Below, in pieces: positions 3,518-22,229 of a DNA stretch of 64,000 bases. Numbering within the stretch: the first letter of the stretch is position 1; the number at the start of each line of letters is the position of its first letter. The position numbers were made by a program, and so were the translations under genes. Source of the DNA: Actinomycetota bacterium (GTDB lineage: Bacteria; Actinomycetota; Geothermincolia; Geothermincolales; RBG-13-55-18); assembly GCA_003598015.1 (NCBI GenBank), contig QZKE01000006.1, forward strand, positions 3,188 through 67,187, read 5' to 3'. The notes under the pieces are model-generated. The model was not told the origin of the DNA and did no database searches. It worked only from the letters and a program-made list of their open reading frames with translations.

Positions 3518-3843
3518 AGTAAGGAATAACTATAAACGATATAAGGATAACCCCCTGTTTTTCCGTTTTAAACTCTGGGGAATATTCGGGGGAATAAGCG
3601 ATGAGCGTAGCTGGAAGATAACAATTACAATGTTTACAATCTTTGGTGCCAGCATCTTTTTATTCTTCCTAGTCGTTCTAATTTTGAGTCTGTAGACAAC
3701 TTTTGTTGGACGCTAGAGTATAAAGGGTGACGTAGAATAGGGTCGAGACTAAAAGGCGGCCACGTCATGAAATAGATTGCTCTCCAAAGTGCCTACCTTG
3801 GATCATGGATAGTTGCGCTTATAATTGCGCTTATAATTACCAA

Positions 3844-4632
3844 TTATTCAAAATACAGATTCTCTATAAGATACTCCACTTCATCATCATTGACTTCGCC
3901 CAATTGATTTTGCACTGTTGCTGCATAAGGTATTCCGTCTCTAAATATCAGAAGTCGATCTTGTACAAAGACATCCTCTTCCCTCTGTATTTTGTGAGTA
4001 AAATGAATGCCACAGAATCCGCTTCTTTCGAGTTGGAAGGCCTCTATCCGTGGGGTTTCACCAACGATCGAGAATTCAGCGTACATCTCTTGCATAGCTT
4101 CCTCGATGTCTTTTCTGTTATCCATTACAAAACGCTTCATCTCCCTTAGGTTCCTTGTTTCCGGCGGTCCACCATTCTCGCCAAGCCCGTAAAAATATGC
4201 AATCTTTGAGGAGGTATGGGCTATGAATATCTGTCTATATCCACTGCTGTCAAGATAAAACGCGTCTAGTGATAAACCTGGTTCTTCCTGCTTTGCAGCC
4301 TCCGCCTCTTCGTCGAACTGCCTTCCAACCACCTGCTCATATCCGTCTGGAGTACCAATCATCTTCAATTGAGGGTGGGCTATATATCGAAAAATACCAT
4401 AGCCGACCATTACAGACGTAAATATGCACACAATGATTGCCAAGATTAGGCATATTATCTTCCAGGCGCTCCAATTTATAGAACCTCGTTTCATTGAATA
4501 TAAAACATTGTCAGGATAACAAGTTGAAGGGCACCCCTCATTTTCACTTGCATATAATTCCTCACTACATCCGATGCAAGACTCATTGGATAAGTCGTTT
4601 TCAGCCCCACAGTGAGGGCATAATATAGGCAT
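3844..4632 (-). CDS. Zinc-ribbon / single-TM protein, candidate immunity protein for orphan-1 tip
   Basis: 262-aa ORF. N-terminal CPHCG...CIGC zinc-ribbon motif. One hydrophobic helix (WKIICLILAIIVCIFTSVMVGYGIF). AGGAG 4 nt upstream of the ATG. Low GC. Sits directly 3' of the orphan-1 stop on the same strand. Confidence 0.65.
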   Translation of the reverse strand: MPILCPHCGAENDLSNESCIGCSEELYASENEGCPSTCYPDNVLYSMKRGSINWSAWKIICLILAIIVCIFTSVMVGYGIFRYIAHPQLKMIGTPDGYEQVVGRQFDEEAEAAKQEEPGLSLDAFYLDSSGYRQIFIAHTSSKIAYFYGLGENGGPPETRNLREMKRFVMDNRKDIEEAMQEMYAEFSIVGETPRIEAFQLERSGFCGIHFTHKIQREEDVFVQDRLLIFRDGIPYAATVQNQLGEVNDDEVEYLIENLYFE

Positions 4633-7700: not shown

Positions 7701-7915
7701 GTCTGCACCTCCCGGCCCAGGTCGTCGTAGGTGCGGGTGGTAACCCTGCCGCAGGGATCTGTCTCGGAGACCTTCCTCTCGGCGTCGGAGTACTCGTAGG
7801 CGTAGGTGCATTCACTGTCGGGCTCGCCCGCGGCTGCGGGGAGGATCTTCTTGGTCACCCTCCCCGCCGCGTCGTACTCGTAGGTGGTTACGCGCTGGCT
7901 CGTGCCGGAGCCCAC
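4793..7915 (-). CDS. Orphan Rhs/YD-repeat cassette 1: core 3' segment plus unrecognised C-terminal toxin tip
   Basis: 1040-aa ORF from a GTG. The same frame stays open and Rhs-homologous up to 8131 (TGA at 8132-8134). YD repeats run throughout. Core-end motifs are ARWYSPVHGRFLSEDP and YPYCACDPVNFNDLSGK. They are followed by ~290 low-GC codons (4796-5665). Confidence 0.8.
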   Translation of the reverse strand: MGSGTSQRVTTYEYDAAGRVTKKILPAAAGEPDSECTYAYEYSDAERKVSETDPCGRVTTRTYDDLGREVQTEGPGDYYALREYDESGNVIEERVRQQSTPAADIFKTARYRYDNLSHRIYSIVEGEGGATYTTSYSYDLEGNHYLTISPLGYATWYHHDLLGRLIRSELPYEGQTRIGTTYRNDALGRVTLTLEGKAGEGRDATRLAYDGLSRLRQVEQWSGPWDEQAHTGTGTASLTSYDIDLTGNLLETTDARLNSTSYSYDACGWPIAKQNPVGETEVYAYNAWGEMTARAYPDSGSSRALTFGYDGRGRLTSEGAVEGDPLTEVARIDYTYDACGNLTCAQEGDSSVDMFYEPATGRLSEVTSTAGTESYQTSYQYLQSGELALRQTEAGATTYAYDKAGRLTSITDPAYRTYSLTWDDESRLSSLALPSGEGHIDYTYYEGGQTETQIAYASMDELDPQASFTYAYNDAGKRESVQVAGLAGGDGEYGYEYDSLGRLTGFDAPSTANDITYAYDEAGNLTAKGASTYTYDDANRLQTGPEGTTYAYDDFGNLECILDAGSNPLETYTYDPLSRLETYVKGETDLSFTYDPLKRLAERIEGEDILSFSYDGTSLAQTGETAGTQEVSFTLTPSGTHLAQEAAGVISYLGLDPHQDITFALDSAGNLSGSRVYDPYGNQLSGDDPCDLGYQSDYTDPSASLIWMGARWYSPVHGRFLSEDPKPGEMEKPMTQNPYPYCACDPVNFNDLSGKYYDPNGGNINESDAAEPTISWDVSSAPEGTSTGEYWDSMADPIQAERVAERERWNRRRIIQRIKNQIIETRKAAIEAGLKNPWRQGLILAESAMNIENLLHHYGVMEDLMEDLSVAGLKKTIAKLRKAEGDIAFRNFMEGLLAIASLDESELNRILTELELESMIRDTFGYGYGNYKTKLFLKLYGYLSISPVSGYVSGSIPGVKCTYDTNSGVDVKFGIYGFSFGAGYKYDSTPEEEPGPTVEIEAGPVGIEFEQDRDINPSVSISIGFPLGVGGSIWWWPKKD

Positions 7916-8131
7916 CTTCTCCCACAGCAGGTTGCCATTGGCGTCGTATATCCAGATCTTCTCGTGCGCGGTATCTCCCCGCGCCCAGCGCTCCAGGACC
8001 TTCTTGCCGAAGGGGTCGTAGGAGTAGGTGATGTCCTGGGCGGGGGAGCGCTCATCGGGGTTTCCGTTGCACCTGGTCTCCTCCGAGAGGAGGCCGTCGC
8101 AGGTGTAGTCGTAGGAGGCTATCTCGGTGAA
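5665..8131 (-). repeat. Rhs core 3' homology block, copy B (orphan 1)
   Basis: Starts 26 nt after the stop of the WG-repeat gene. Matches main-gene residues from about DYDYFCDGLLSWETR onward. Confidence 0.8.
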
Positions 8132-8157
8132 TCAATGGAGTATGTTTCTAGCTTCGA

Positions 8158-9258
8158 TTACTGATTACTGCTGATCTTAGTACTTATAGCCGCATAGCCT
8201 TCAGAGAAAGGATTTGCAAAGCAATCTACTTCTATCATAATATCTCCAGATTTATCAATGAATCCCAACCTGTTGTCAACATGGGTCTCAGCCCGGCTAT
8301 CATGGAAACCTAAAGCGACATCAAATCGAGGTTCGATAACCAGTTCCCCGTCTTTGTTGATATAACCGTACTTGCCGTTAAGTAAGACTGGAGCCAAGCC
8401 TTCTTGAAATGAGGACGCACTCTCATATTGGGGCTCTATCACTTCAATCCCATCCTTATTGATATAGCCCCACATATCGTTGATCTTGATCGCGGCCAGC
8501 CCATCTTGAAAATCGTAGGCGAAATCAAAGCGAGGTTCAATTACAACAACCCCTGCATTATCGATAAACCCATAGTTGCCGTTTATCAATATACATTTTA
8601 ATCCCTCACTGAAACCCGTACTTAACTGACCCTCAAGCAGTTCTACAGTCGCTTCTGGTTGCAAGTCGAATACTATTTCACCAAGCCCATTGATCACGCT
8701 ATATCTATCATCCATCCACACAAATGCCAGACCCTCTGAAAAATCGAATGCCCATTTATAAATAGGTTCTATCACCATTCTTCCAGATACATCTATATAG
8801 CCACGCTTTTCAGCGATACTCACACAGGCGAGCCCATCATGGAAAGATCTTGCATAGTCGAATTGCGGAGAAATGATCATATCGCCTGATCCGTCTATGT
8901 ATCCCCATTTATCATCGACTTTAACGGCAGCCAGCCCCTCATGAAAATCCCCGGCTTCCCTATATTTGGGCTCTATAATCATATTTCCATTTTTGTTTAT
9001 AAATCCCCATAGACCACCAAAATCGACCCTCGCATACCCTTCATGGAAATTTGCTGCTTGTTTAAATTGAGGCTCGATTACAATCACGCCGTTTACGTCC
9101 ATGTACCCCCAAACTTCATTGTTGTTAACCATTTTCTGCTCTCTGCCTTCATCCGGTATATCGCTGCCACAAGACGACGATAATAGTGCAAACAACATCG
9201 TTGCCGTTGCTGTCAAAATAATGTAATACCTACTGTATCTTCCTCTCATGAAAATCAC
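8158..9258 (-). CDS. WG-repeat (KWG-type beta-repeat) secreted/lipoprotein, candidate immunity protein for the Tlde1-like tip
   Basis: 366 aa. N-terminal hydrophobic signal ending LLSSSCGS. About nine repeats of WGYIDxxGxxVIEPxFxxAxxFxEGLAxV. Low GC. Lies 82 nt downstream of the main rhs stop on the same strand. Confidence 0.85.
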   Translation of the reverse strand: MIFMRGRYSRYYIILTATATMLFALLSSSCGSDIPDEGREQKMVNNNEVWGYMDVNGVIVIEPQFKQAANFHEGYARVDFGGLWGFINKNGNMIIEPKYREAGDFHEGLAAVKVDDKWGYIDGSGDMIISPQFDYARSFHDGLACVSIAEKRGYIDVSGRMVIEPIYKWAFDFSEGLAFVWMDDRYSVINGLGEIVFDLQPEATVELLEGQLSTGFSEGLKCILINGNYGFIDNAGVVVIEPRFDFAYDFQDGLAAIKINDMWGYINKDGIEVIEPQYESASSFQEGLAPVLLNGKYGYINKDGELVIEPRFDVALGFHDSRAETHVDNRLGFIDKSGDIMIEVDCFANPFSEGYAAISTKISSNQ

Positions 9259-9340: not shown

Positions 9341-12300
9341 TCACCAGGAATCACCAGGATGGCCCGGATTAGTATAACCGACACCTATATCTACGAATAG
9401 GTATGTGTTCGACCAATTATCTGGATTTTGATCATAGCCAAGCCCTAGCAAATCACTAAAGGCATCGATAGATCTATCGAGCTTGTTTCCTAACACCCCT
9501 ATACACCCAGAGGTGCCTGCAGCTCCAGCATCCTCATGTATTAGAAACACCCCTTCCTGTATGAAATTGTCGTTTATATCTCTACTACGTGATGTTTGAT
9601 TATATAGCCATTCCATGGTGGAGCCTTTCATACCTACATTGCCGGCAGGTCTCAGTCTTATTACCCAATCCCCAAAACCTGGAAGCCAAGATTCTGTTTC
9701 TGGATTCTGTCTCCTGGTTAGCCTCCATGCACCCCTTGGAATAGGTCCAATGTCCTCTTGGGTCATCTGACCACCTGGCTGACCCGAATAAGCATCAACA
9801 TGGAACAGGCGTACCTTTCTGCCTCCCCCAAGATACATATACAAGTCAAGATACTTACCATCAAACGTCATTTCGGTATGGCCCGGGCAGAAATAATGTT
9901 TTACATCTCTCCAGAATCTCGTTTTCTGGTCAATGGTCATATTGTTAAGAACATTTATATCTGTTCTCATTAGAAACTCATCAAAATTATCAGACTCTAT
10001 TGCCGCAACTACGACTGCACCTAGACTACCCTCTAACTCAACGTCACGGTCATTCTGAATATCTTCTATTATATCTCTCAAGTATTCCTCCGCTGGATCC
10101 GGCGGGTCTTCTCCGCTTGTATGTTTATCCTGCACCAGTCCATACTCCTTGGCTTTATTCACGACCTCTTCTGCCATGCAAAGCAACCGGTAGGCCTGAT
10201 AGAGATGTTGCAGCGTCTTCTCCAGGTGATCTCTCGTATTCATCAAGTACGAAGGAGGCTCCATGCCGGCGCGGATGTAGAGGTGTATTGCATCTTGTAT
10301 CTGTATCAAAGCCCCGGTGACAGCCTGAATCTGCTGCGCAAGATCCTCCTTTGGCCCCATCCCCGTGGGGTCGAAGGCGTTTATAGGGTCGTCCTTGCAG
10401 TAGAGGTAGGGGTGCAGGGAGAGGGGGTCGCCTGTCTCGCCCTTTAAGGGGTCGACCGAGATGAACCGGGTGAGCTCGGGTGAGTACCAGCGTGCGCCCA
10501 TCCACACCAGGCCGGAGAGGGGGTCCTCGTAGTCCTCCTGGTAGCCCAGGGATGAATCGACGCTCCCCGCCACGGTATTCCCGTACGGATCACATATCCT
10601 CCCTCCCGTGAGGCTCCCCTGGCCCGAGAGGGTGAAGGAGACGTCGGTGTGGGGGGAGAGGCCCAGGTAGGACAGGGTCCCCTGTTTGTCCTGGGCCAGG
10701 TGCGTGCCCCCGGGGTCCAGGGCGTAGGTGGCGAGGGCGCCCCCTGCCGCGTTCGTCTCTTGGATCTGGGAGAGCGAGGCGCCGTCGTAGCGGAAAGCCC
10801 GCTCCGTCTCTCCGCCCACCTTCCTCTCCGAAAGGCGTCCCAGGGCGTCGTAGGAGAGGGTTACCAGGGGGGCCTGCGCGCTCTCCTTATAGGAGACCAG
10901 CTTCCCGAAGCCGTCCCAGGTGAAGGTCTCCGTGCCCTTCTGTACGAGGTTGCCCACCTCGTCGTAGGTGTAGGCGCCCTCGGGGCCGGTGGTTATCTGG
11001 CCCGCGTCGTTGTAGGAGTAGGTCTTGGTCTGCCCTCCGGTGGTCTGCTGCTCCAGATTGCCGCAGAGGTCGTAGTCGTAGGTTATGTCGTTTGCGGTGC
11101 TGGGGGCGTCGAAGCCCGTGAGCCTGCCCATGCCGTCGTAGGCGTAGGAGTAGGCGCCGGAGAGGGCGGTCTGGGAGGGCACGTTCACGGTCATGCCCGT
11201 CCGCCTGCCCCGGTCGTCGTAGCTGTAGTCGTAGGAGGCCTGCAGGGTGTTGGATGAGTCGTAGGCGGTCTGGGTCTCCGTGAGGCCCTCGGCGTAGTAG
11301 GTGTAGTCTATATGTCCCCCCGAGGCTGGGAGGGAGGCCCGCTCCAGCAGGGAGTCGGGGCTCCACTCGAAGGTGAGGGTGCCCCCGCAGACGGAGTCGG
11401 AGGAGGCGGTGAGCCGGCCGGAGATGTCGTAGGAGTAGTTGGAGGAGGCTTGGGTCTGGCCGCCTGAAGTCAGGATGCGGGAGCGCAGCTCCCCGGAGTC
11501 GTAGTAGCCGTAGGTGGTGGAGTAATCCCCCGCCGCTCCCTCCGCGTCGCAGGAGACGGAGGAGAGGCGGGAGGCGCCATCGTATGAAAGGGAGATGGTG
11601 CGGCCTGCGTCCACCCCGTTCGCCCTATCGTATACCGCCCCGGTGAGGTTTCCGGCATGATCGTAGGCGTAGTTGATGACATCGACCTCCGAGGTCCCGT
11701 CCAGCGCCCTCTCGGCTGTGAGCTGGCCGCGGCCGTCGTAGTCGTAGTCGATGGTGCGGTCGGGTTCGGGCTCGGTATAGGTGTGGGTATCCGCCTCCCC
11801 GTATGCGGTGTAGGTGAAGGACTCGGCCTGGCCCAGGGGGTCGGTCTTGCTGGTGGCCCGGCCGCAGGCGTCGTAGGTGTAGGAAGTGGTCTTCTCCCGG
11901 GCATCCGTCTGGGAGAGGAGGCTGCCCGTAAGGTCCACGTCGTAGGAGGTTGTGGCCCCCTCGCCCCCCGCGGGCACCGTATACGGCCCTGGGCCCGCCC
12001 CCGTCCAGGCATCCGTCCACTGCTCCACCCGCCGCAGGCGGGAGAGGCCGTCGTAGGTGTAGCGGGTGCCGTCCGGGTCCGCGTCCCCCTCGAAGGTATG
12101 CGTCTTCCTCCCCAGGGCATCGTAGGTAAAGGAGGTGACCACGCTCGCGCCCCCGGAGTGGGGCAGGACCTGACGCCGCAGGAGGGAGAGGCTGTCGTAG
12201 GCGTAGGTGGTGGTGTTGCCCCCCGGGGTGGTGGTGCTGGTGAGGTTCCCCCCATGGTCGTAGGCGAAGGCGGTGGAGAGGAGCAGCTGCTGCCCCCCGT

Positions 12301-15300
12301 CCTCCGAGAGCACCCGCTTCTCTACGAGCCTGCCCAGGTCGTCGAAGCGCTGGAAGGCCTGGCGGAAGGTGTCCGCTCCGACGCCCGCCTCCTGGCGGGA
12401 GGACTCCCGGATGACGTTGCCGCCGGCGTCGTAGGCGCGCAGCACCAGGGACTCTCCTGGAATCTCGGCCATCTCAACCCGTCCCAGGTCGTCCAGGGTG
12501 CTTATAACGGTCCGGCCCTCCGGGTCGGTCGCGGTCACCTTGCGCTCGGGGTCGGAATATACGAAGGATATGGTGCGCTCGCCTGTGGTCTCGCCGCCCG
12601 CGTCGGGCAGGATCTTGGCCAGCGGGCGATTGGCGCCGTCGTAGGTGTAGGCGGTGCTGCGCAAGGCCGTGCCGTTCCCGGAGGCCTCGGCCACCAGGTT
12701 GCCCGAGCCGTCATAGGCATGCAGCTGGACGTAGCTCTGCCCGCTCCCCAGGTCCCAGCTCTCCCGGGTCTTCTTCCCCGCGGGGTCGTAGGAGTAGGTG
12801 ATCTGCTGGGAGGGGGAGGTGCCCCCGGGGTTGGTATTGTTCCTGGTCTCCCAGGAGAGGAGGCCGTCGCAGAAGTAGTCGTAGTCAGAGACCAGGGTGG
12901 TGCCGCCTATGCTCCCGTAGGTCCCCAGGGAGAAACCGCCCGAGGCTTCCCCCACCGCCGCCCATACGTGCTCAACCTTTCCGAGGCCGTTGTAGTCGTA
13001 GGTGCGGTGGGAGTAGACCGCGTCTTCGGTGCCCTCTCCGTCGCAGATCGTCTCGGTGGTCACGTTGCCCAACATGTCGTAGCCGCGGTGCGCGACCACA
13101 CAGGTGGGAGCTTCATCCGGATACGAGCATATCGCCGCCTCCTGCACCGTCTTGCCCTGAGCGTTGTAGGCAAAGGAGATTGTGGCCGCGGGTGATGCCG
13201 GTCCCGTCCTGGTCTCCGTGAGCCTGTTGCCCGCGGGATCGTATTCATAAGTGGTGGTGATATCGCCCATGCTCTCCCCGGTGGTGCTCGCCTGGGCGAG
13301 CACGCGGCTCGCGGCGTCGTAGGTGTAGTTCACCTGCGCCTCGCGCCAGGTGAGGGCGTTCAGGTTGGATAGGGAGGGGTCGGGCACGGGCCGCGTGGTC
13401 CTCTCGCAGATCACGTTGCCCCGCGTGTCGTAGCTCTTCACGGTGCGGTAGTACATCTCCCCGTAGAGGGCCGAGGTGAAGCGGCGCTCCTCGTAGGCGG
13501 GCCGGCCCGCCGCGTCGTAGCCGTATGTGACGCATCCCGTGGAGTTCGGGTCCACCCTCTTCTTCACCTGGCCGTCGGCGAAATACTCGTAGGAGGTCAC
13601 GCGGTCCTCCCCGTCCACCTGCCGGACCAGGCGCCCGGCGTCGTCGTAGAAGTATCGCGTTTCCCTGCCCGCGTAGTCGCTCTCGGAGAGCAGAAAGCCA
13701 TTGGTGTCGTATTCCTTTGTCGCGCTGGTGTAGAGGGGATATTGAACCCAGCCGCCCGCGGGCGGGTTTGAAGTGTCGCCGGACGTATATACCGTTCTGG
13801 TCCATTCGCGGTCGTCCTTGTAGTACGTGTAGCCGGTCATCAGCCAGACGGCCTGCGGGTCAGAAGATGTATCCCCCCTGCTCCTTATGGTATATGCCAG
13901 GTTGCCGTTCTTGTCGTAGCGGGTGATCTCGGTGGGATTGAGGGTAGCCCCTCCCACGTTGATGGTGTAGCTGGTGTTCTTCTTCGTAACCCCCCGGAAA
14001 CCGTCCGCGACGTCGTCGTCGTACGTATACTCGTATTTGACAAGGCCCGGCCCGAAGGGCATAGAGGCCCCCAGCTCCTCGCTCTCAATCCTCCCATCCC
14101 CGGTATAGTCGTAGAAGTTAATGCACACCTGCGCCCCGTCTCCACTGGGTTGCGCCGGGTTCTCGTTCCAGTCCGAGAAGAGGTCCTCGCGGGTCAGGTC
14201 GCCATAGGCATCGTATATGTATTGCATGGTTGGTTCCTGCCCGTCCTCTTCGGGCCCCGGCTCTCCGTTCACCCTGGGCATGACCTTCAGCGTGGGCAGG
14301 CCCGGATTATTAACGGGCTCCGACGTGTCGTAGAAGTATAGGGTTTCGCTGAGGTCGAAATCTTTCACTTTCACAAGGTTGTTGTTACCGTCGTAGTCAT
14401 AGTACTTTGTATTCCCTGCCCCGTCAGTCTCGGAGGTGAGGCGGTCGCGCTCGTCATAGGTGAACTCCCTCACTCCCCCGTCGGGGCTGATGATGCGCTT
14501 CACCAGTCCCTGCTCCGAGGTGAACTGGGTGATGCGGCCCGCGGGGTCCCGGACCGACTTGCCGTTGCCGTCGTCCCCGTAGGAGTAGATGGTGGACTCA
14601 CCGGCGTTGTTCACCTCCTGGATGAGGCGGTAGAGGGTGTCGTAGCGGTGGGTGGTGGTGTAGCCCCGGCAGTCGGTGACCATGGTCATATGGGAGGGGG
14701 TGGCGTAGGAGAACTGCGTGGCGTGGCCGTACGCGTCCTCCGTCTTGCTGACCATGCCCGCGTTCGCCTCCCCTTCGGCGTAATAGGAGATGGTCTTTGA
14801 GGTCTCGTGGATATCGAGATTTTCGGGTTTGGCGATGCTCTCCAGCCGGTCCTGGAGATTGTATTTGTATTCGGTGGTCGCCCCGTAGATGTCCTGCACG
14901 TGTTCCAGGTTAGCGCTGTTATATGTGTATCCCACGGATATGAGATAGGGATTCTCTTGCCCGTTAAACTGGTTGTTGTATTCGAGCTTGGTTATGTGTT
15001 CACCATCCCAGGTGATATCCAAGCATCTGAATGTCCCCTCACTACCCGGCGCGGTGATCTTGTCCAGCTTGTTGTCGTCTCCGTAATCGAGCGTCAGGAT
15101 GTTATCGCTTGCGCCGTAATCGTCGACGATACGGACCAACCGCTTCGTCTCAGCGGGATCACCATCAACGTGGTCGAACTCCCACAGGTTGCCCCCGGGG
15201 ACCTTGAGGGTGTAGGGGGTGCTGTAATCGGGGTTTCCGGGATCGCTGCCCATCCCTTCGAACCTGCCCGCAGTGAGGTCGTCGAAGACCGTCGGCGGGG

Positions 15301-18300
15301 GCTTGAAGGTATCGCCCTCCTTTGTGTATGTGTCCACCCGGCCGTCGCCGCGGTGCACCTTGAGCGCGGTCATCGCCGGCGGGCTGCCGTTATCGTACAC
15401 CTCCTCGATATACACGTTATAGCTGTAGTCCCAGCCGTTGCCCACGGCGCTCTCGGGATAGGTGCCCCCCGGCTTATAGGAGTTGTAGGTGCGCTTGAAC
15501 TCGATGTCGATGCCCCGCCCGGGCAGGCTGACGTCGGTGGCCTCCTCCGTATAGCTGCCCAGGGAGGTGTTGATGCCCTCGTAGAAGCCGCAGAAGGTGT
15601 CGAAGCCCAGGGCGTTTAGGTCGTCCACCTCGTTCTCGGGCTCGTAGCACATCGTGCCGCGGCCGACATAGTTGAAATAGACCTTGCCGCCGGCGATAAC
15701 CGCGCTGGGTACGGGGCTATCCGCCACCAATTCTCCGTCCGTATAGGGAGACTCCCAGCGCAGGGCGCCGGAGTAGGCGTCGAAGACCATGAGCTTGGTG
15801 GTTGGGTAGTCGAAGGTTCCGACGGTAGTGAAGCCCACGTAGAGAAGGCCTCCTGCAACTGCCGGAGCACCCAGATCCGGGCCCCCGTTAAGCTGATAGG
15901 TGGAGTAGTCCTTGCACCACATGGTGGAGGCGGTGGTGGCATCGAATGCCCAGAGTTTAAGGTAGGTCTGGCAGCCAACGTTGTGGTTGGATACACAGTA
16001 GAGTATGCCGTTAGCATAGGCGATGTCATCTTCGAGCGACGAATAGACGTTCTCGCTCTGATCTCCGCCATATATCAATTGTTCGTTTTGGATCTCTACT
16101 ATCCTGATGCGGGATTGACTTAATCCGTACCAATATTTCACGTAGATGATGCCGTTGTGAATGGTGGGCACGCCTCCATAGTTCCACTGGGGCCAGGTGG
16201 TATCGGGATCGAGAATTAGGTCGTCTTCTTCCGCACCGGTGTTGATGTCGACAGCGCGCAGGCGGCCGCCCTCGGTGAATACCGCCATTCCCTCTAAGAC
16301 CGCCGGCCTCGACGGCCCCCACGGCAATTCAAAGGCGCGGTTCCATCTCTGCACGCCAGGGTTCTCCAGGTCCACGCAGACGAGGTGCGTGGTGGTCGTG
16401 AGCAGGAGCCGGTCTCCGATCGCAACCGGGTTGTTCGTGAACTCCTCCCCCGCAGGGGCGTAGTCCGTCACGAAGTACGGGTCGCCCTCCAGGCTTAGAT
16501 TATCCGCATTCAGCACGTGCAGGCTGTGGTCGGTCACCACGTAGGCCTTCCCGTTCGCCACGCACATGCCCCGGATTCGGTAGTCGGCTGGATCCGTCTC
16601 TTCAAACACGGCTTTCCTATCCCCCGCCTGCTCCCCCGTGGTATATATCTTCAGTACGGTGAACTTTTCATCCCCGCTCTCCGCCACGTAGAGGAAGCCG
16701 CCGCTCACCACCGGGGTTTTGCGGTTCATTTTATTATTTGTGCTATGATCCTCCCATTCTTGCGCGAAGGGCCAGAACATCTCCCCGGGCTTGATCCCCG
16801 CATTATAGTGGGTGTTCTTGAGGTCGTAGCCCTCCATGGGCCACTCCGGCACGCCCGAATAGTAGTAGGGATATGCGCTCGAGGCTGCGGCGTTGCCGGC
16901 CTGATCGAACGCCTTGATGAGGAAATCGTAGTAGCCGAAGCCCCTGGCGGTGAGGTCTACCGTCGCCGTCACATCGTAGTCTACCCCGCTCAGCGGCTCC
17001 TCGTATACCTTCTCGAGAGGCGCCCCTCCGTCGGTTGCCCAGATCTCAACCCTCTCGAGCCCGGACGCGGGCGCGGGATCGGATAGGTGAAAACTGAACT
17101 TGATTATACCCGGCTCGCCTTCGATAGGATTCTCCAGTTCTGCCACACCGATGGTGGGGGGCGTGACCTCTAAGGTGATGGTGTCGGAGTATACGGGGGA
17201 GTACACCCCGCTTATATCGACGAACTGGCAGCGCACCTCCTTCAGGCCCTCGACGGTGGGGAAGAAGGCGGAGTCCAGGATCCAGTCGCAATGTAGCACC
17301 CCGGTGTAGGAGCCCCCGCCGGGCAGCAGCGGCTTGGCATTCTCGGGCACGTAGTCCGGGTTGGCCGGGTCGTAGTTCCAGATCTTCACGTACTCGGCGT
17401 CCTCGGCAAAGAGTTTTAAATTGGTGAAGCCGGTATTGGTGAAATCTCCCGCCACGTCCTTGCCCATTACCTCTATGCTTCCCGAGGGCGGGGCGTTGTC
17501 CACATGTATGATGCGGATGGCCGTGCGTTGATGGCCGGCCGCATCCGAGGCTTGCAGCGCCAGGACGTGCTCGCCGTCGTCCACAGTGGTAGTGTCCCAG
17601 GTGAAGATATCCTCGGGATAGGGGCCGGTGCCTTCTTCCTCGATTAGTAGGTTGAGGTTCTCTCCGTCCCAGTCGTAGAGTGAGCAGGATACGATGTTGC
17701 TATCGTAGGCCACCCCCGCTATGTGCACCTGCTCGTACACCCTCCCCTCCTCGGGAGAGTCGATACGGACGTCGGGGAAGGTGTTGTCGGGGTTTACATG
17801 CACCCTGGCTACGGAGGAGTTGCCGGCCGCATCCGAGACAGAGAGTTCCAGCCACAGCCCCGTCTCCGCCAGCTCCGCGGTGTCCAGGCTGCCGAGGTTT
17901 ACGCCCGGCGGCAGGGTGTCGGATACGATCTCCGTCCACAGGGCGTCCGGGTCCTCGGGGTCGTCCTGGGTGTACCTGAGGCGCCAGGAGGCGAAGTTGG
18001 CATCGGATGCGGTGCCCTGCACGAACAGCGTTCCGCATGCCGCCTCCTCCGGCGCGGGCGAGGTGATGGCCGCGGCAGGGGGCGTGTTGTCCACGTTCGC
18101 CTGCACCGTGGTCTCGCTCACCAGGCCGGCTTGGTCCCGTACCGCCAGCTTCAGGGTGTAGAGGCCGTCGGCCGCGGCGGTGGTGTCCCAGCTATAGAGG
18201 AGGCCGCCCGCGGCCGGGGTCGTCATCTCTGGTGAGAGGGGGATCTCAGCGGGGCCAGTCCCCTCGCCGTAGAAGAGCTGGTAGGCGGTGAAATGCTCGT

Positions 18301-21300
18301 CCGTTGCCGTCCCGGTGATCTCCGCCGTCCCCCGCAGGTGTCCCCCCTCCTGGGGGGAGGAGATCTGGGCTGTGGGGTAGGTGCGGTCCACCTCCACGGT
18401 CACCTGGCCGGTGGAGATCTTGCCATAGGCGTCCTCCACCTGCAGCCGGAGGGTGTGGGGACCCGCGCAGGTCTCCATGGCGTTCCAGGTGGCGAGCACC
18501 CCGCCCGTGACCTCCTCCGTGCCGTACAGGTCCGCCTCTTCGTAGGCGTAGGCGCGGAAGGCGAAATCTCCGCTGCCCGCCTGCCAGGAGGTGCCGTTGT
18601 AGGAGAAGGCACCGCCACCTGGGTAGATATCCGAGCCGTACTCGCCCCACCTGGCGTAGTTATCCCCGTCCGTCTGGCCGTCGGTGCGGTAGATGACCAG
18701 GGCGTAGGTCCCCGAGGGGTCCAGGTACTGGCCCCGGAACTCGAATGGGTACCAGTGCTGTCCGGGGACGGCGTCGATCTCGCTCATGGCGTAGGTGGTC
18801 TCGGATACGGCTATGGCCTCGGAGGTGGGCACGCCCCCGGAGCATGCGCAGACCTTGAGCCCGATGCGGCAATCGCTCTCACCGATCCTGGTCAGGTAGA
18901 CCTCCGCCCGGTCCAGGTAGGGGCGGTCGGGGGTGAAGGTCTGGGCCAGGTCCAGGGCGGTGGGGGAGAAGTAGAAGGCGGGGTGGGTGCTGGCCTCCTC
19001 CTGGGAGGGCCCGGGGTCGCTCGCGACCGGGGGGATGGGGTAGAAGACGGAGGGGCTCTCCCCCACCCCGTAGGAGAGGAGGTAGCGGTAGAAGTTGCCG
19101 TCCGCAGCCGTGCCCTCGATCTGCAGCTGCCCGCCCACGATGGCGCCCTGCCCCGGCCAGGAGATCTCGGCGGCCGGGTCCTGCCTCTCTATGACCACGC
19201 CCACGATGTCGGAGCTCTCGAGGCCGCCCGCGTCGGTGACGGTGAGCTTTAGGTGCGCGATGCCGTCGGGGAGGCCTGAGAGGTCCCAGGTCTCCAGGTC
19301 CCCCTCCTGCACCGGGCCCGTATGCGGGGGGCTCAAGGGGGTCCATTCGCTCTCGCCCTCCAATCTGCATGTAAGCTGCCAGGATGAGAGCAGGACGTCG
19401 TAGGCGGTGCCCGTGACCATGAGCGAGGGGGAGGTGAGCACCTCGCCCTCCTCCGGATAGGTGATCTCGGCGTCCGGATAGGTGGAGTCCCAGACCACCT
19501 CGAAGGAGTTGGATTGGCCCGCATGGCCGGATCCGTCGTCCACGCTCACCTGGCAGGAGGCCGCGGCGGCGGATATGACCGCCTCCCCCGACCAGACACC
19601 GGAGGTGAAGTCGCCGCTGGCCTGCGGGGCTACGGTGCCCGTGGTGTCGGATATGTTAACCGAGCCCGCATAAGAGACCGCGGTGTTGCCGAAGGCGTCG
19701 GTGGCGGTTATGGCCAGGGGGAAGGCCACCCCCGCCGTGCGGGGGGTGGATATCTCGGATATGGCGAAGTGGTCCACGGGTCCCGCGATCACCTCGCTCT
19801 GCACGGTGTTGGTCGCGCAGGGGCCTGTCTCGGCGCAGTCCGCCTGCGCCTGGTTGGTTATGAGCGTGCCCGCCGGGGCCTGTGCCTTTACCTGGGCGTT
19901 AAAGGAGAGCTCCTGCTGCCCCTGGGAGGGCAGGGTGCCCAGGTCCCAGGTGATCTTGTGCTCGGAGGGCTCGTATACCCCTCCCCCCGTGATGCCCGAG
20001 ATGTTCTCCAGGCTCTCGTCCAGGTAGTCCGTAACCGCGGTCTGGGTGGCCTGCCCGGCGCCTGAGTTCACCACGCCTATGGTGTAGGCCAGGGTGCCCT
20101 GGGGCTGCACCTGCGCCAGGTCCACCTCCTTGCAGGTGGTGGAGAGGTCGGGGAGCAGGGCGGCCACGTCGAAAGTGTTGGAAGCACCCGTCTTCCCGTC
20201 ATATGCGCAGGTGATGACGTCGGCGGTGTAGGGGGCGCCGATGGTCACCGCGCCCGTGAACACGCCGGAGGCGAAGCCGCCGGGCGGCACGTCGGTCTGG
20301 CCGTAGCCGTCGTATCCCCAGCCCGCGATGGTGCCGCCTGAGCGCAGGGCCAGGCAGTGGTGGTCCCCCGCGGATATGGCGGTGAAATCGTTGCCGGAAG
20401 GCACCGTCGTCTGACCATAGTTGTTGTACCCCCAGGCGGCCAGGGTGCCGCCGGTGCGCAGGGCCAGGGAATGGTAGTTGCCCGCGGAGATGGCGGCGTA
20501 ATCGTTTCCCGCGGGCGGGGTGGCCTCGCCGTGCTCGTTGTATCCCCACCCCGCGATGGAGCCGTCCGCGCGCAGGGCCAGGCAGTGGTAGGCCCCGGCG
20601 GAGATGGCCACGTAGTCGCTGCCGGAGGGCACGCTTGTCTGCCCGTTATTGTTCAGCCCCCAGGCCACCAGGGAGCCGTCGGTCTTCAAAGCCAGGGAGT
20701 GGTAGTAGCCGGCGGAGATGGCCGCGAAATCGTTTCCCGCAGGCACGTTCGTCTGGCCGTAGTAGTTCTCGCCCCAGCCGGCCAGGGAGCCGTCCGCTTT
20801 GAGCGCCAGGCCGTGGAAGCCGCCCGCGGCCACGGCGACGAAGTCCGTGCCCGCCGGAGGGGTGGCCTGGCCGTGGTTGTCGTAGCCCCAGCCGGCCAGG
20901 GAGCCGCCTGAGCGCAGTGCCAGGGAGTGATTGGCGCCGCCCGCCACGGCGACGTAGTCCGTGCCCGCGGGCACGCCGGTCTGGCCCTGGTCGTTTTTGC
21001 CCCACGCCCACAGCGACCCGCCGGAGCTCACCGCCAGGGAGTGGTGGGAGCCGGCATCCAGGGCGGCGTAGACGTTCCGGGTCTCCGTGGGGCTGATGGC
21101 CCCTGTGAGGTCCGAGAGGCCTGCCACTTCCTCGAAGTCGGAGATGGTCTCCCCCGCGGCGTCCTTGGCGTAGATGGTCACCGCGAAGGGCTGTCCCTCG
21201 GTCTGGGGAGAGGATACGGGATCGAAGGTGAAATGGTGAAGGGGATCGGGGGCGATCACCGTCGTTTGGACGGTGTTGCTCACATGGGGCCCCCCGCCGC

Positions 21301-21703
21301 TGTAGGAGATGCTCGCGCTGTTGGGGATCACCGTCCCTATAGAGGTTGACTCCATGATGTCGGCGGTGAAGGTGAGATTCATCTGGCCCCCGGCGGGGAC
21401 GGTGCCCAGGTTCCAGGTCACGGTCCTGGTGGAGGGGTTGTAGACGCCGCCCCCGGTGATATTGCCCACGTCCTCCAGGTTCACGTTCACCTGGTCGGTG
21501 ACGACGGTGCTCGTCGACGCCTGATCGCCCGAGTTGATGACGTTCAGCGTGTAGGTGAGGGTCTCCCCCGGAGGGGCTTGCGCGAGGTCGACGGCCTTGG
21601 AGGAAGTGCCGTAGTTGATGCAGCCGGCCGCGAAGAGGGTGAGCAAGCTGCCGGCCAGCATGGCCAGGATGGTCAATGCGGTTACGCCCTTGGATCTCTT
21701 CAA
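9341..21703 (-). CDS. Giant (4120 aa) Rhs/YD-repeat polymorphic toxin with signal peptide, 2x DUF11, RCC1 propeller, Ig-like array, PQQ-like beta-propeller, Rhs cage and Tlde1-like C-terminal tip
   Basis: Single uninterrupted ORF with a TTG start. Signal peptide MKRSKGVTALTILAMLAGSLLTLFAAGC. DUF11-like segments (LTYTLNVINSGDQAS; LAYTIGVVNSGAGQAT). Seven 38-aa RCC1 blades. Five modules carrying IxSPxxG...GTAxDxNF. YD repeats run from about 15570 to 10358. The core ends WMGARWYSPELTRFISVDP...HPYLYCKDDPINAFDPTGM. Confidence 0.95.
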   Translation of the reverse strand: MKRSKGVTALTILAMLAGSLLTLFAAGCINYGTSSKAVDLAQAPPGETLTYTLNVINSGDQASTSTVVTDQVNVNLEDVGNITGGGVYNPSTRTVTWNLGTVPAGGQMNLTFTADIMESTSIGTVIPNSASISYSGGGPHVSNTVQTTVIAPDPLHHFTFDPVSSPQTEGQPFAVTIYAKDAAGETISDFEEVAGLSDLTGAISPTETRNVYAALDAGSHHSLAVSSGGSLWAWGKNDQGQTGVPAGTDYVAVAGGANHSLALRSGGSLAGWGYDNHGQATPPAGTDFVAVAAGGFHGLALKADGSLAGWGENYYGQTNVPAGNDFAAISAGYYHSLALKTDGSLVAWGLNNNGQTSVPSGSDYVAISAGAYHCLALRADGSIAGWGYNEHGEATPPAGNDYAAISAGNYHSLALRTGGTLAAWGYNNYGQTTVPSGNDFTAISAGDHHCLALRSGGTIAGWGYDGYGQTDVPPGGFASGVFTGAVTIGAPYTADVITCAYDGKTGASNTFDVAALLPDLSTTCKEVDLAQVQPQGTLAYTIGVVNSGAGQATQTAVTDYLDESLENISGITGGGVYEPSEHKITWDLGTLPSQGQQELSFNAQVKAQAPAGTLITNQAQADCAETGPCATNTVQSEVIAGPVDHFAISEISTPRTAGVAFPLAITATDAFGNTAVSYAGSVNISDTTGTVAPQASGDFTSGVWSGEAVISAAAASCQVSVDDGSGHAGQSNSFEVVWDSTYPDAEITYPEEGEVLTSPSLMVTGTAYDVLLSSWQLTCRLEGESEWTPLSPPHTGPVQEGDLETWDLSGLPDGIAHLKLTVTDAGGLESSDIVGVVIERQDPAAEISWPGQGAIVGGQLQIEGTAADGNFYRYLLSYGVGESPSVFYPIPPVASDPGPSQEEASTHPAFYFSPTALDLAQTFTPDRPYLDRAEVYLTRIGESDCRIGLKVCACSGGVPTSEAIAVSETTYAMSEIDAVPGQHWYPFEFRGQYLDPSGTYALVIYRTDGQTDGDNYARWGEYGSDIYPGGGAFSYNGTSWQAGSGDFAFRAYAYEEADLYGTEEVTGGVLATWNAMETCAGPHTLRLQVEDAYGKISTGQVTVEVDRTYPTAQISSPQEGGHLRGTAEITGTATDEHFTAYQLFYGEGTGPAEIPLSPEMTTPAAGGLLYSWDTTAAADGLYTLKLAVRDQAGLVSETTVQANVDNTPPAAAITSPAPEEAACGTLFVQGTASDANFASWRLRYTQDDPEDPDALWTEIVSDTLPPGVNLGSLDTAELAETGLWLELSVSDAAGNSSVARVHVNPDNTFPDVRIDSPEEGRVYEQVHIAGVAYDSNIVSCSLYDWDGENLNLLIEEEGTGPYPEDIFTWDTTTVDDGEHVLALQASDAAGHQRTAIRIIHVDNAPPSGSIEVMGKDVAGDFTNTGFTNLKLFAEDAEYVKIWNYDPANPDYVPENAKPLLPGGGSYTGVLHCDWILDSAFFPTVEGLKEVRCQFVDISGVYSPVYSDTITLEVTPPTIGVAELENPIEGEPGIIKFSFHLSDPAPASGLERVEIWATDGGAPLEKVYEEPLSGVDYDVTATVDLTARGFGYYDFLIKAFDQAGNAAASSAYPYYYSGVPEWPMEGYDLKNTHYNAGIKPGEMFWPFAQEWEDHSTNNKMNRKTPVVSGGFLYVAESGDEKFTVLKIYTTGEQAGDRKAVFEETDPADYRIRGMCVANGKAYVVTDHSLHVLNADNLSLEGDPYFVTDYAPAGEEFTNNPVAIGDRLLLTTTTHLVCVDLENPGVQRWNRAFELPWGPSRPAVLEGMAVFTEGGRLRAVDINTGAEEDDLILDPDTTWPQWNYGGVPTIHNGIIYVKYWYGLSQSRIRIVEIQNEQLIYGGDQSENVYSSLEDDIAYANGILYCVSNHNVGCQTYLKLWAFDATTASTMWCKDYSTYQLNGGPDLGAPAVAGGLLYVGFTTVGTFDYPTTKLMVFDAYSGALRWESPYTDGELVADSPVPSAVIAGGKVYFNYVGRGTMCYEPENEVDDLNALGFDTFCGFYEGINTSLGSYTEEATDVSLPGRGIDIEFKRTYNSYKPGGTYPESAVGNGWDYSYNVYIEEVYDNGSPPAMTALKVHRGDGRVDTYTKEGDTFKPPPTVFDDLTAGRFEGMGSDPGNPDYSTPYTLKVPGGNLWEFDHVDGDPAETKRLVRIVDDYGASDNILTLDYGDDNKLDKITAPGSEGTFRCLDITWDGEHITKLEYNNQFNGQENPYLISVGYTYNSANLEHVQDIYGATTEYKYNLQDRLESIAKPENLDIHETSKTISYYAEGEANAGMVSKTEDAYGHATQFSYATPSHMTMVTDCRGYTTTHRYDTLYRLIQEVNNAGESTIYSYGDDGNGKSVRDPAGRITQFTSEQGLVKRIISPDGGVREFTYDERDRLTSETDGAGNTKYYDYDGNNNLVKVKDFDLSETLYFYDTSEPVNNPGLPTLKVMPRVNGEPGPEEDGQEPTMQYIYDAYGDLTREDLFSDWNENPAQPSGDGAQVCINFYDYTGDGRIESEELGASMPFGPGLVKYEYTYDDDVADGFRGVTKKNTSYTINVGGATLNPTEITRYDKNGNLAYTIRSRGDTSSDPQAVWLMTGYTYYKDDREWTRTVYTSGDTSNPPAGGWVQYPLYTSATKEYDTNGFLLSESDYAGRETRYFYDDAGRLVRQVDGEDRVTSYEYFADGQVKKRVDPNSTGCVTYGYDAAGRPAYEERRFTSALYGEMYYRTVKSYDTRGNVICERTTRPVPDPSLSNLNALTWREAQVNYTYDAASRVLAQASTTGESMGDITTTYEYDPAGNRLTETRTGPASPAATISFAYNAQGKTVQEAAICSYPDEAPTCVVAHRGYDMLGNVTTETICDGEGTEDAVYSHRTYDYNGLGKVEHVWAAVGEASGGFSLGTYGSIGGTTLVSDYDYFCDGLLSWETRNNTNPGGTSPSQQITYSYDPAGKKTRESWDLGSGQSYVQLHAYDGSGNLVAEASGNGTALRSTAYTYDGANRPLAKILPDAGGETTGERTISFVYSDPERKVTATDPEGRTVISTLDDLGRVEMAEIPGESLVLRAYDAGGNVIRESSRQEAGVGADTFRQAFQRFDDLGRLVEKRVLSEDGGQQLLLSTAFAYDHGGNLTSTTTPGGNTTTYAYDSLSLLRRQVLPHSGGASVVTSFTYDALGRKTHTFEGDADPDGTRYTYDGLSRLRRVEQWTDAWTGAGPGPYTVPAGGEGATTSYDVDLTGSLLSQTDAREKTTSYTYDACGRATSKTDPLGQAESFTYTAYGEADTHTYTEPEPDRTIDYDYDGRGQLTAERALDGTSEVDVINYAYDHAGNLTGAVYDRANGVDAGRTISLSYDGASRLSSVSCDAEGAAGDYSTTYGYYDSGELRSRILTSGGQTQASSNYSYDISGRLTASSDSVCGGTLTFEWSPDSLLERASLPASGGHIDYTYYAEGLTETQTAYDSSNTLQASYDYSYDDRGRRTGMTVNVPSQTALSGAYSYAYDGMGRLTGFDAPSTANDITYDYDLCGNLEQQTTGGQTKTYSYNDAGQITTGPEGAYTYDEVGNLVQKGTETFTWDGFGKLVSYKESAQAPLVTLSYDALGRLSERKVGGETERAFRYDGASLSQIQETNAAGGALATYALDPGGTHLAQDKQGTLSYLGLSPHTDVSFTLSGQGSLTGGRICDPYGNTVAGSVDSSLGYQEDYEDPLSGLVWMGARWYSPELTRFISVDPLKGETGDPLSLHPYLYCKDDPINAFDPTGMGPKEDLAQQIQAVTGALIQIQDAIHLYIRAGMEPPSYLMNTRDHLEKTLQHLYQAYRLLCMAEEVVNKAKEYGLVQDKHTSGEDPPDPAEEYLRDIIEDIQNDRDVELEGSLGAVVVAAIESDNFDEFLMRTDINVLNNMTIDQKTRFWRDVKHYFCPGHTEMTFDGKYLDLYMYLGGGRKVRLFHVDAYSGQPGGQMTQEDIGPIPRGAWRLTRRQNPETESWLPGFGDWVIRLRPAGNVGMKGSTMEWLYNQTSRSRDINDNFIQEGVFLIHEDAGAAGTSGCIGVLGNKLDRSIDAFSDLLGLGYDQNPDNWSNTYLFVDIGVGYTNPGHPGDSW
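10358..12960 (-). repeat. Rhs core 3' homology block, copy A (within the full-length gene)
   Basis: Region of the main gene paralogous to both orphan cassettes. Protein-level similarity is clear. Nucleotide similarity is patchy, with islands of perfect identity. Confidence 0.75.
20279..21070 (-). repeat. Seven tandem RCC1-like blades, exact 38-codon (114-nt) period
   Basis: H[SGC]LA motif at residues 221, 259, 297, 335, 373, 411 and 449. Each unit has the form GxxHSLALxxxGSLxxWGxNxxGQTxVPxGxDFxAI. Confidence 0.85.
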
Positions 21704-21783: not shown

Positions 21784-21990
21784 TGCAATCCCCCCATGTG
21801 CCCGGAGCTTACAACGCGTCTTATATCGCATACGCAAAACGTGGTGAGGTAAGAAGAAGTAGTCATGCCCGCGCGCTCATCCGTACCCCCCTTCGTCCTC
21901 GCAGCCGCCGCCGGCCCGCCGCATGCGCTCGGCCGGCGCGCTGCCGAACCTCGTTTGCTTACCGGCGGTCAATAGCCCCACTGGCGTCTA

Positions 21991-22019
21991 TTCATATAGG
22001 GGGGCAAGCGAGATGTCAA
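21991..22019 (-). promoter_or_regulatory. Candidate sigma70-like promoter upstream of rhs (TTGACA-17 nt-TATGAA)
   Basis: Minus-strand TTGACA at 22014-22019 and TATGAA at 21991-21996. About 290 nt upstream of the rhs start. Sequence match only. Confidence 0.25.
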
Positions 22020-22229
22020 GCGGTAAATGGTTTTTTTTTACAGCTTCGGTCGTACTGGTGGCCTCCGCTGGTCACCAAGTCACGTCAATCGAAGGCAGCC
22101 TGCCAAGCCGCGTACGGCTTGCATCTCGATCAGAGCATGAATCAAACCGTTACCTGTGCAGATTCAAGGCCAGCCGTGCAAAACGTGACAGCGGAGCGAG
22201 GACCACTACCCCGGAGCTCGGGCAACAAA

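Follow-up and report, generated by a model that had tools for sequence, protein, structure and literature searches.

An rhs gene of 4,120 codons at the head of a toxin array

The window analysed here, a 64-kb stretch (64,000 nucleotides) of contig QZKE01000006.1 from an Actinomycetota bacterium, carries at 9341..21703 on the minus strand an open reading frame (ORF) of 4,120 uninterrupted codons with a TTG start. Its G+C content at third codon positions (GC3) is 0.83, in line with the genuine genes of the window. The ORF is a genuine gene for a 4,120-residue Rhs/YD "toxin-in-a-shell" bacterial competition toxin, and the protein is probably exported by Sec, lipid anchored and displayed at the cell surface, working like WapA and the bacterial teneurin-like proteins (TLPs). 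A homologue from the Actinomycetota metagenome-assembled genome (MAG) Zod_Metabat.1188 (P0001; JAFGDU010000045) is collinear with residues 1-3528 at 48.6% identity, the alignment ending where the P0001 contig stops, and a Logan contig (L002) is collinear with residues 1-2057 across two frameshifts. Because P0001 aligns end to end and L002 is collinear, the gene is not an assembly chimera.

Profile searches of the protein with Pfam and NCBIfam returned two DUF11 domains, seven RCC1_2 repeats with WD40_RLD, Big_7, PQQ_2, DUF6531, RHS/YD repeats and the Rhs-associated core. Together the two libraries recovered nearly the whole stack that a first-pass annotation had read from the sequence (two DUF11 domains, a seven-bladed RCC1 propeller, Ig-like modules, a PQQ propeller and a YD cage). 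That annotation had also described the protein as lacking PAAR, VgrG, WXG/LXG and two-partner secretion (TPS) domains, and none of these families matched at E ≤ 0.01 in either library. It had overlooked a pair of orphan cassettes lying downstream, the candidate immunity genes, and the nesting of the RCC1 propeller and of a second insert within Ig-like domains. The parts of the protein, from N to C terminus, are as follows.

21620..21703 (-): signal peptide with lipobox LFAAG/C28 and TTG start; rule-based match and hydropathy; kept in P0001
21260..21619 (-): CLIPPER/DUF11 domain 1, residues 29-148; matches to PF01345, TIGR01451 and TIGR04226
20144..21259 (-): Ig-like domain (residues 149-208 and 475-520) with nested seven-blade RCC1/BLIP-II-like propeller (residues 209-474); RCC1_2 x7, WD40_RLD and BLIP-II match
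19478..20143 (-): CLIPPER/DUF11 domain 2 (residues 521-640; best PF01345 stretch 525-636) and uninterrupted Ig-like domain (residues 641-742)
17504..19477 (-): five Big_7-type Ig modules, residues 743-1400; PF17957 and motif positions
18524-19033 (-): beta-sandwich nested in the second Big_7 module, residues ~891-1060; structure model and Foldseek
16784..17503 (-): further Ig-like modules, residues 1401-1640; weak Big_3_3, Big_13 and Big_3_4 matches, all below threshold; boundaries approximate
15599..16783 (-): PQQ/BamB-like beta-propeller, residues ~1641-2035, directly ahead of the plug; PF13360, E = 6e-12, 46 bits against a cut-off of 27.6
15314..15598 (-): DUF6531 N-terminal plug, residues ~2036-2130; PF20148, 40.5 bits
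10604..15313 (-): YD/RHS-repeat shell of ~1570 residues; PF05593, TIGR01643 and NF041261
10355..10603 (-): Rhs-associated core with ARWYSP..RF.S.DP and PINAFDPTG (PxxxxDPxG); TIGR03696, 67 bits, residues 3705-3782
9341..10354 (-): polymorphic C-terminal toxin (CT), 337 residues; G+C content 0.46; helical linker and Tlde1-like domain at residues 3979-4070

The locus is a classic polymorphic-toxin array, in which the main rhs gene is followed by a lipoprotein immunity candidate and then by a pair of orphan rhs-CT cassettes truncated at the 5' end.

8158..9258 (-): candidate cognate immunity protein, a 366-residue WG-repeat lipoprotein with lipobox LLSSS/C; PF14903, E = 1e-88; G+C content 0.43
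4793..8048 (-): orphan rhs cassette 1, a 5'-truncated YD shell end, core and a different CT of 296 residues; ORF 4793-7915, homology to 8048
3844..4632 (-): candidate immunity protein for orphan 1, with a zinc ribbon, one transmembrane (TM) helix and a C-terminal domain of ~170 residues; weak Zn_Ribbon_1 match; G+C content 0.43
3..3191 (-): orphan rhs cassette 2 with a third CT, seen by translation; cut off at the left edge of the window

Orphan 1 aligns to residues 3009-3781 of the main protein (45% identity) and orphan 2 to residues 2934-3781 (46%). At the DNA level, identity is 84% between the orphans and ~65% between them and the main gene. Three different CTs thus sit on homologous Rhs cores, and small low-G+C genes follow the first two. 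The G+C content of the main gene falls from 0.65 to 0.46 exactly at nucleotide 10355, the last codon of PINAFDPTG, and the CT and immunity modules all lie at 0.40 to 0.52, against 0.61 to 0.66 elsewhere. A compositional break at the Rhs core together with low-G+C modules beyond it is a classic mark of exchange of CT/immunity cassettes.

Profile searches found no family for the CT of orphan 1, and for that of orphan 2 neither a family nor a PDB match. A reading of the CT of orphan 2 as an SLT-type lytic transglycosylase, made by eye from the string AWES...GIAQM, found no support in Pfam (E ≤ 5), NCBIfam or the PDB and is an unsupported impression. The zinc-ribbon/TM gene is followed by a low-G+C spacer (3192-3843; 0.40) holding an ORF of 113 residues without a family match (3176-3517, minus strand), perhaps a second small cassette gene, perhaps non-coding remnant DNA. 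Opposite the YD repeats run long antisense ORFs of up to 562 residues (963-2651, 6599-8164 and 11657-13195, all on the plus strand). They are artefacts of repeat composition, with G+C content near 0.9 at first codon positions and Gly/Val-rich translations, and automated pipelines could mis-call them as genes.

An N-terminal stalk with nested modules

A basic n-region and a hydrophobic core mark the N terminus (MKRSKGVTALTILAMLAGSLLTLFAAGC), which fits a PROSITE-type lipobox rule with Cys28; the string MKRSKGVTALTILAMLAGSLLTLFAAG followed by C satisfies this rule. The signal peptide with its LFAAGC motif, suspected earlier from FAAGC, is 79% identical in P0001, and the two genes share the TTG start. 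Families that bind the cell wall or attach to it (CWB, LysM, SLH and LPXTG) were absent from the main protein at E ≤ 0.01 in Pfam and NCBIfam.

The first two domains after the signal peptide form a unit that occurs twice. DUF11, of which the protein has two copies (PF01345, 75.7 bits), now goes by the name CLIPPER and was shown, in fibrillar adhesins, to be a stalk domain stabilised by isopeptide bonds (bioRxiv 10.1101/2025.04.25.650565); here the isopeptide-domain profile TIGR04226 reached 28.5 bits against a cut-off of 30. The duplication of the CLIPPER-Ig unit gave a local alignment score of 387, compared with 68 ± 10 for shuffled sequences. In the first copy the Ig-like domain is interrupted by the RCC1 propeller, and when the propeller was spliced out, residues 149-208 and 475-520 aligned globally with the paralogous Ig-like domain at residues 641-742 (score 134 against 20 ± 10.6 for shuffles). 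The propeller itself matched RCC1_2 seven times and WD40_RLD (E = 1e-55), and the best match of the region in the PDB was the secreted seven-bladed BLIP-II of Streptomyces (E = 1e-39).

The five or more Ig modules with a common motif that had been noticed before were found, in a motif search, as exactly five. They carry I-x-[SWY]-P...G[TV]A-x-D at residues 747, 847, 1114, 1213 and 1314, and Big_7 matched above threshold. The second module also holds an insert, which had been labelled DUF4082-like. That label drew no DUF4082 match in Pfam even at E ≤ 1; the insert itself is present as a beta-sandwich inside the module, according to an AlphaFold2 model of residues 840-1115 (predicted local distance difference test [pLDDT] 75, predicted template modelling score 0.71). 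The PDB folds that Foldseek placed nearest to it are a baseplate protein of phage phi812 (E = 4e-7) and sandwiches of the carbohydrate-binding module type. With the RCC1 propeller nested in an Ig-like domain and the sandwich nested in a Big_7 module, both are loop insertions displayed from stalk domains.

A separate protein of 744 residues, encoded on contig L083 (10836-13070, plus strand) and adjoining a distant Rhs relative (P0121), has an RCC1 propeller that is 51% identical to the fused one; a TPR protein and a small zinc-ribbon/TM protein are encoded between the two. The proximity of this separate RCC1 protein to P0121 hints at a functional link between the RCC1 module and Rhs loci of this kind.

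A divergent propeller ahead of the plug and shell

Toward its distal end the stalk gives way to the PQQ-like propeller, the DUF6531 plug and, after ~130 residues, the first YD repeats. The shell matched PF05593 (E = 1e-55) and TIGR01643 (E = 1e-39). In the PDB its sequence was closest to Rhs proteins from type VI secretion systems (T6SS; E = 1e-15), with weak matches to teneurins (E = 5e-8 to 2e-7). The PxxxxDPxG motif at the end of the core is a predicted aspartyl autoproteolysis site, with the cut expected at DPTG/M.

Conservation varies strongly along the protein. Identity to P0001 is 65 to 75% in the membrane-proximal stalk including the RCC1 propeller, 45% in the nested sandwich, 38 to 41% from the last Big_7 module through the Ig-like tail and the PQQ propeller, 68% in the plug and 46% in the YD shell; identity to L002 is 60 to 66% in the stalk and 34% in the PQQ propeller. 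In both comparisons divergence is greatest in the PQQ propeller taken with the distal Ig modules next to it. The fast-diverging distal modules are likely the target-recognition end, and the PQQ-like propeller beside the plug is the best candidate for that role because of its divergence.

The C-terminal toxin and its candidate immunity protein

The first third of the CT is helical, and the stretch that follows matched Tlde1_dom (PF10908; E = 3e-5, 24.8 bits against a cut-off of 30.1). Within it lies H4056-EDAGAAGT-S-G-C4067-I, which can be set beside the catalytic motif of Tlde1a, H-x-(S/T)-H-G-C-hydrophobic with H121, H129 and C131 (PMC9638812). The spacing from the first His to the Cys is 11 in the CT and 10 in Tlde1a, and a Ser of the CT stands at the position of H129. 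The match is suggestive, and that the CT is a peptidoglycan enzyme of the LD-transpeptidase fold is a tentative assignment, to which we would give a little under an even chance.

The WG-repeat lipoprotein encoded next is the candidate immunity partner of the main CT; a literature search on WG-repeat immunity proteins yielded nothing specific. The zinc-ribbon/TM protein is the corresponding candidate for orphan 1. Both are extracytoplasmic, the former by its lipobox and the latter by its TM helix. A lipoprotein and a bitopic protein sit where an envelope-acting toxin needs to be neutralised, which supports an envelope-acting CT. This topology suggests that the toxins act on the envelope from outside, and such action would explain why export by Sec suffices.

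A rare lineage of three sequences

The N-terminal architecture of the main protein was found, among 5.8 billion clusters, only in P0001 and in P0002, a fragment of 1,493 residues. The junction of propeller and plug was shared only with P0001 (E = 4e-69) and P0121 (E = 5e-20) in an exhaustive HMMER search of 1.84 billion representatives, which replaced a word-index search of this segment (residues 1640-2140) that had missed P0001. P0121 is an Rhs protein of 2,887 residues with Ig-like and propeller repeats at its N terminus, and both it and P0001 carry a precomputed TEN_YD-shell match. Scans of GTDB representatives and JGI metagenomes added no further members, among them a scan of genome contigs with peptide patterns from residues 640-2050 and one of metagenome contigs with alignment A1.

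Collinearity with the main protein is confined to P0001 and the frameshifted L002, so that the lineage comprises three sequences, all from uncultured organisms and one of them from Zodletone spring. The closest relative is the one on L002 (9583-15801; Logan contig from ERR15087788). Two frameshifts split it, which is why P0002 is no more than a fragment; either the assembly is at fault or the gene is a pseudogene. Upstream of it lies a type I-C CRISPR-Cas locus.

The 5' region of the main gene

Two elements upstream of the main gene stand out in comparison with L001, the contig of the Zodletone MAG that carries the P0001 gene.

21975..22045 (-): promoter-like element (A9 tract, TTGACA, TATATGAAT), ~300 nucleotides upstream of the start codon
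21700..21796 (-): duplicated ribosome-binding site (RBS) and start region, a ~35-nucleotide duplication of the RBS and first rhs codons; single copy in L001

The promoter-like block (A9 tract, TTGACA and TATAT[G/A]AAT; about 85 nucleotides) is ~88% identical to L001 9712-9790, and it alone is near-identical, the rest of the 5' untranslated region having diverged. It has been kept even though the flanking genes of the window and of the Zodletone MAG differ and the proteins are 48.6% identical. The 5' untranslated region had no match in Rfam. A pattern search for the promoter motif found nothing in metagenome contigs and, in genome contigs, only the P0001 MAG. The duplication creates an upstream ORF of 27 codons (MKRSKGAVAMNVDIEPRRASGILGGLN, then stop), running from a TTG at 21783 to a TGA at 21700 that overlaps the main start codon as TTGA; this would allow translational coupling, or the upstream ORF may act as a leader peptide.

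Genomic surroundings

Across the remainder of the window ~50 ORFs were scanned with Pfam, and none belonged to a T6SS, type VII secretion system (T7SS)/ESX or TpsB family, in agreement with what had been read from the sequence before, and the visible flanks of L001, L002 and L083 likewise held no secretion-system genes. Neither the main protein nor its neighbours contain SpvB, TcdB or TcA families. The flank upstream of the main gene carries guaA, guaB3 and groEL. Overall, the remainder of the window encodes mostly housekeeping functions, with guaA, a GuaB3-like IMPDH, groES/groEL, tsaD/rimI/tsaB/tsaE, UDG, alr, glmS, glmM, rplM/rpsI, truA, sugar-nucleotide enzymes and a MacB/FtsX ABC pair. 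At ~70% identity, the closest guaA genes are those of Actinomycetota MAGs, which makes the host an uncultured, deep-branching actinobacterium, presumably with a monoderm envelope.

Four other regions deserve mention. A fusion of 1,192 residues (32569-36147, plus strand) joins a YfhO-like membrane protein to a family-2 glycosyltransferase and is followed by epimerase and DegT aminotransferase genes, probably making up a cell-envelope glycan locus. Between groES and tsaD, among genes that are otherwise housekeeping, lies an ORF of 283 residues (27602-28453, plus strand) with a lower GC3 of 0.54, with predicted TM segments and no Pfam match. The right edge is occupied by an IS3-family transposase (63023-63999, plus strand; HTH_Tnp_1, then HTH_21 and rve), beside which lies a low-G+C ORF of 203 residues without a family match (62399-63010).

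Proposed mode of action and alternatives

In the mode of action that we infer from the domain and motif content, the organisation of the cassettes and the lack of linked secretion genes, the signal peptide, of the signal peptidase II (SPII) type, would direct the protein to Sec, and Cys28 would be lipidated, tethering the N terminus to the outer face of the membrane. A stalk of ~1,600 residues (two CLIPPER, two Ig-like, five Big_7 and further Ig-like domains; roughly a dozen beta-sandwich domains) would project through and beyond the wall. The loop-inserted RCC1/BLIP-II-like propeller and beta-sandwich would be presented as binding modules, the distal modules would engage a neighbouring cell, and the PQQ-like propeller ahead of the plug may recognise the target, as its divergence suggests. 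Plug, YD shell and Rhs core would enclose the 337-residue CT, which predicted cleavage at PxxxxDPxG would free. Once released, the Tlde1-like CT would attack the wall of the neighbour from outside, and the WG-repeat lipoprotein would neutralise the CT on the surface of the producer. The two orphan rhs-CT cassettes could act, through recombination, as a reservoir of alternative toxins. A Sec-exported, lipid-anchored toxin that acts on the envelope would require no dedicated secretion machine. Every one of these steps has precedents in published work.

Several points weigh against this reading. Toxin activity is its weakest step, because the PF10908 match lies below the Pfam curated cut-off and the CT lacks homologues (residues 3791-4120 in a homologous-protein search), a match above noise among PDB sequences and a usable model (single-sequence AlphaFold2, pLDDT 38). 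A Ser instead of the His129 of Tlde1a precedes G-C, the CT is large at 337 residues compared with the ~15-kDa C-terminal domains of TLPs, and the WG-repeat lipoprotein is assigned as its partner from gene position. The signal peptide and lipidation of the main protein were judged by rule alone, and the envelope type of the host by taxonomy alone. The view is that of a 64-kb window, with the DNA to its left and the remaining genome outside it.

The sub-threshold score and the want of homologues, PDB match and usable model also favour a variant of the proposal, in which the design stands as described, the Tlde1 match is spurious and the CT, rather than being a peptidoglycan enzyme, would enter the cytoplasm or membrane of the target like the WapA tRNases; most characterised Rhs/WapA toxins do act in the cytoplasm (PMC3482391, PMC12704120). 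Against this variant, the Tlde1 match has an E value of 3e-5 in a single-protein search, a His...[ST]-x-G-C-hydrophobic motif falls within the matched stretch, and an exported lipoprotein would be an odd place to neutralise a cytoplasmic toxin. We regard the variant as possible and, on this evidence, somewhat doubtful.

Could the main protein instead be a member of the TLP family, with its fibronectin (FN)-plug, NHL propeller and YD shell, equipped with variable adhesion domains? TLPs, described by Raoelijaona et al. in 2026, are rare but widespread, including in Actinomycetota, and combine variable N-terminal adhesion domains and signal peptidase I (SPI) or SPII signals with a propeller beside the YD shell; they are cleaved at PxxxxDPxG, and an immunity gene lies downstream of them (PMC13018210). 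In 96% of them the N-terminal region has a TIP domain (PMC13018210). The main protein shares with them its rarity, the surface-displayed YD-shell toxin proposed here, the adhesion stack, an SPII signal, a propeller by the shell, a CT bounded by the cleavage motif and an immunity gene downstream, and both the weak teneurin matches in the PDB and the TEN_YD-shell matches of P0001 and P0121 point the same way. The order of parts argues otherwise. TLPs run from FN-plug through NHL propeller to shell, and in the main protein the propeller precedes a DUF6531 plug, leaving ~130 residues between plug and YD repeats and no room for an NHL propeller. Moreover, the propeller is PQQ_2, Pfam found no NHL match, T6SS Rhs shells match the YD shell better than teneurins do, and the CT is ~2.5 times larger than that of TLPs. 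We therefore rejected membership in this family, which is unlikely.

Still less probable is that export or delivery depends on a specialised system encoded outside the window (T7SS/ESX, T6SS, a Tc-like TcA, or a SecF-like/sortase helper as in Streptococcus suis), so that the apparent independence would be an artefact of the 64-kb view. The left flank does lie outside the view, orphan 2 runs off the window, and ESX systems are common in Actinomycetota. The WapA protein of S. suis, furthermore, requires adjacent SecF-like and SrtB helpers (PMC12704120). On the other side, the main protein has no WXG/LXG, PAAR, VgrG, SpvB or TPS domain, its lipobox signal is kept between orthologues, and three related loci in different genomic contexts have no such genes nearby, the upstream flank of the main gene consisting of guaA, guaB3 and groEL. 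That the protein is mainly a fibrillar adhesin or cell-cell recognition protein without an antibacterial role, its shell and CT repurposed as in metazoan teneurins, is highly improbable: the N-terminal 2,000 residues do resemble a fibrillar adhesin (CLIPPER, Ig, propellers), but its intact autoproteolysis motif, its low-G+C swapped CT, the immunity-type gene that follows and the pair of orphan CT cassettes are what characterises an active polymorphic toxin locus.

The Sec-exported, lipid-anchored toxin that we favour is of interest because much less is understood of Sec-dependent Rhs/WapA-type toxins than of their T6SS counterparts, and the protein bears on how a molecule of >400 kDa gets across the wall, recognises its target and sets its cargo free. 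Useful in this respect are a predicted lipid anchor instead of wall-binding repeats, nested binding modules, a variable propeller abutting the plug, and cargo and immunity that both apparently lie outside the membrane. If the CT is Tlde1-like, a peptidoglycan-editing toxin family of Gram-negative T6SS would be extended to Sec-exported Rhs toxins of Actinomycetota, and the needlessness of a delivery machine would be explained. More speculatively, the lineage could represent an independent third "propeller-gated YD shell" beside TcB and teneurin/TLP, in which the fast-evolving PQQ-like propeller is the receptor sensor and an envelope-targeting cargo kills monoderm neighbours from outside without translocation. 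We consider this rather unlikely; were it true, Sec alone would amount to a complete delivery system for Rhs toxins. In any case the protein adds a data point to the theme of propeller plus YD shell, which is relevant to the origin of teneurins. Coming from a rare uncultured lineage, its significance is incremental rather than field-changing.

Comparison with known systems

Sec-dependent export is not new among polymorphic toxins. A T2SS/Sec-dependent class with a signal peptide and repeats, including beta-propellers and RHS, is one of their standard export classes (Zhang et al. 2012; PMC3482391), and other DUF6531-Rhs proteins recovered here likewise pair Sec signals with long fn3/MG2/Ig stacks. 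Within this class WapA, named as the closest analogue in the first-pass annotation, is an appropriate comparison, given the Sec signal of the main protein and the lack of linked specialised secretion genes. WapA of S. suis exceeds 3000 residues, is Sec-dependent, has two Rhs regions forming one large barrel and ends in a CT of ~50 kDa (PMC12704120). The main protein has in common with WapA of Bacillus subtilis and S. suis a Sec signal without a T6SS or T7SS targeting domain, an N terminus for surface retention and adhesion, the autoproteolysis motif of the Rhs core, very large size, an oversized or double Rhs barrel, and a polymorphic CT with a downstream immunity gene and alternative CTs. It differs in its presumed anchor, the lipobox Cys where WapA has wall-binding (CWB) or LysM repeats, in its stalk of CLIPPER, RCC1, Big_7 and PQQ-propeller modules, and in its actinobacterial host. 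The adjacent SecF-like and sortase genes of the S. suis locus have no counterpart at the main locus, and the CT of WapA is a tRNase whereas the main CT is putatively Tlde1-like.

The best sequence matches for the YD shell are the T6SS Rhs effectors RhsA of Pseudomonas protegens (7Q97), Tse5 (8CP6) and Tre23 (7PQ5), which also share the DUF6531 plug, the Rhs core, the encapsulated CT and the orphan cassettes. They begin with a PAAR- or VgrG-binding N terminus, and in its place the main protein has a signal peptide and 2,000 residues of extracellular modules, with no T6SS genes. As for T7SS toxins, Pfam and NCBIfam found no LXG/WXG helical domain in the protein and the window has no EssC/EccC or WXG100 genes near the main gene. 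Membership in the T6SS, T7SS and Tc groups was accordingly rejected for want of PAAR/VgrG, LXG/WXG and SpvB/TcA, respectively.

The Tlde1 family (Salmonella Tlde1a, PDB 7UMA) resembles the main CT in the weak Tlde1_dom match, the H...(S/T)xGC-hydrophobic motif and the extracytoplasmic immunity partner expected in both. Tlde1 proteins are known as peptidoglycan effectors of T6SS, whereas the main CT would be delivered by a Sec-exported Rhs protein in a presumed monoderm; its score under the family threshold, its Ser for His129 and its WG-repeat lipoprotein as immunity candidate also set it apart. With the CLIPPER fibrillar adhesins (bioRxiv 10.1101/2025.04.25.650565) the main protein shares a signal peptide followed by a CLIPPER/Ig-like stalk with interspersed binding modules, unlike them having single CLIPPER domains, not tandem arrays, and a YD-shell toxin at the distal end. 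The first-pass annotation had not recognised the combination of domains. The exact stack is indeed very rare, with two collinear relatives, while the general design is already established. The main protein is thus a rare architectural variant within the known Sec-signal Rhs toxins with adhesion domains and propellers.

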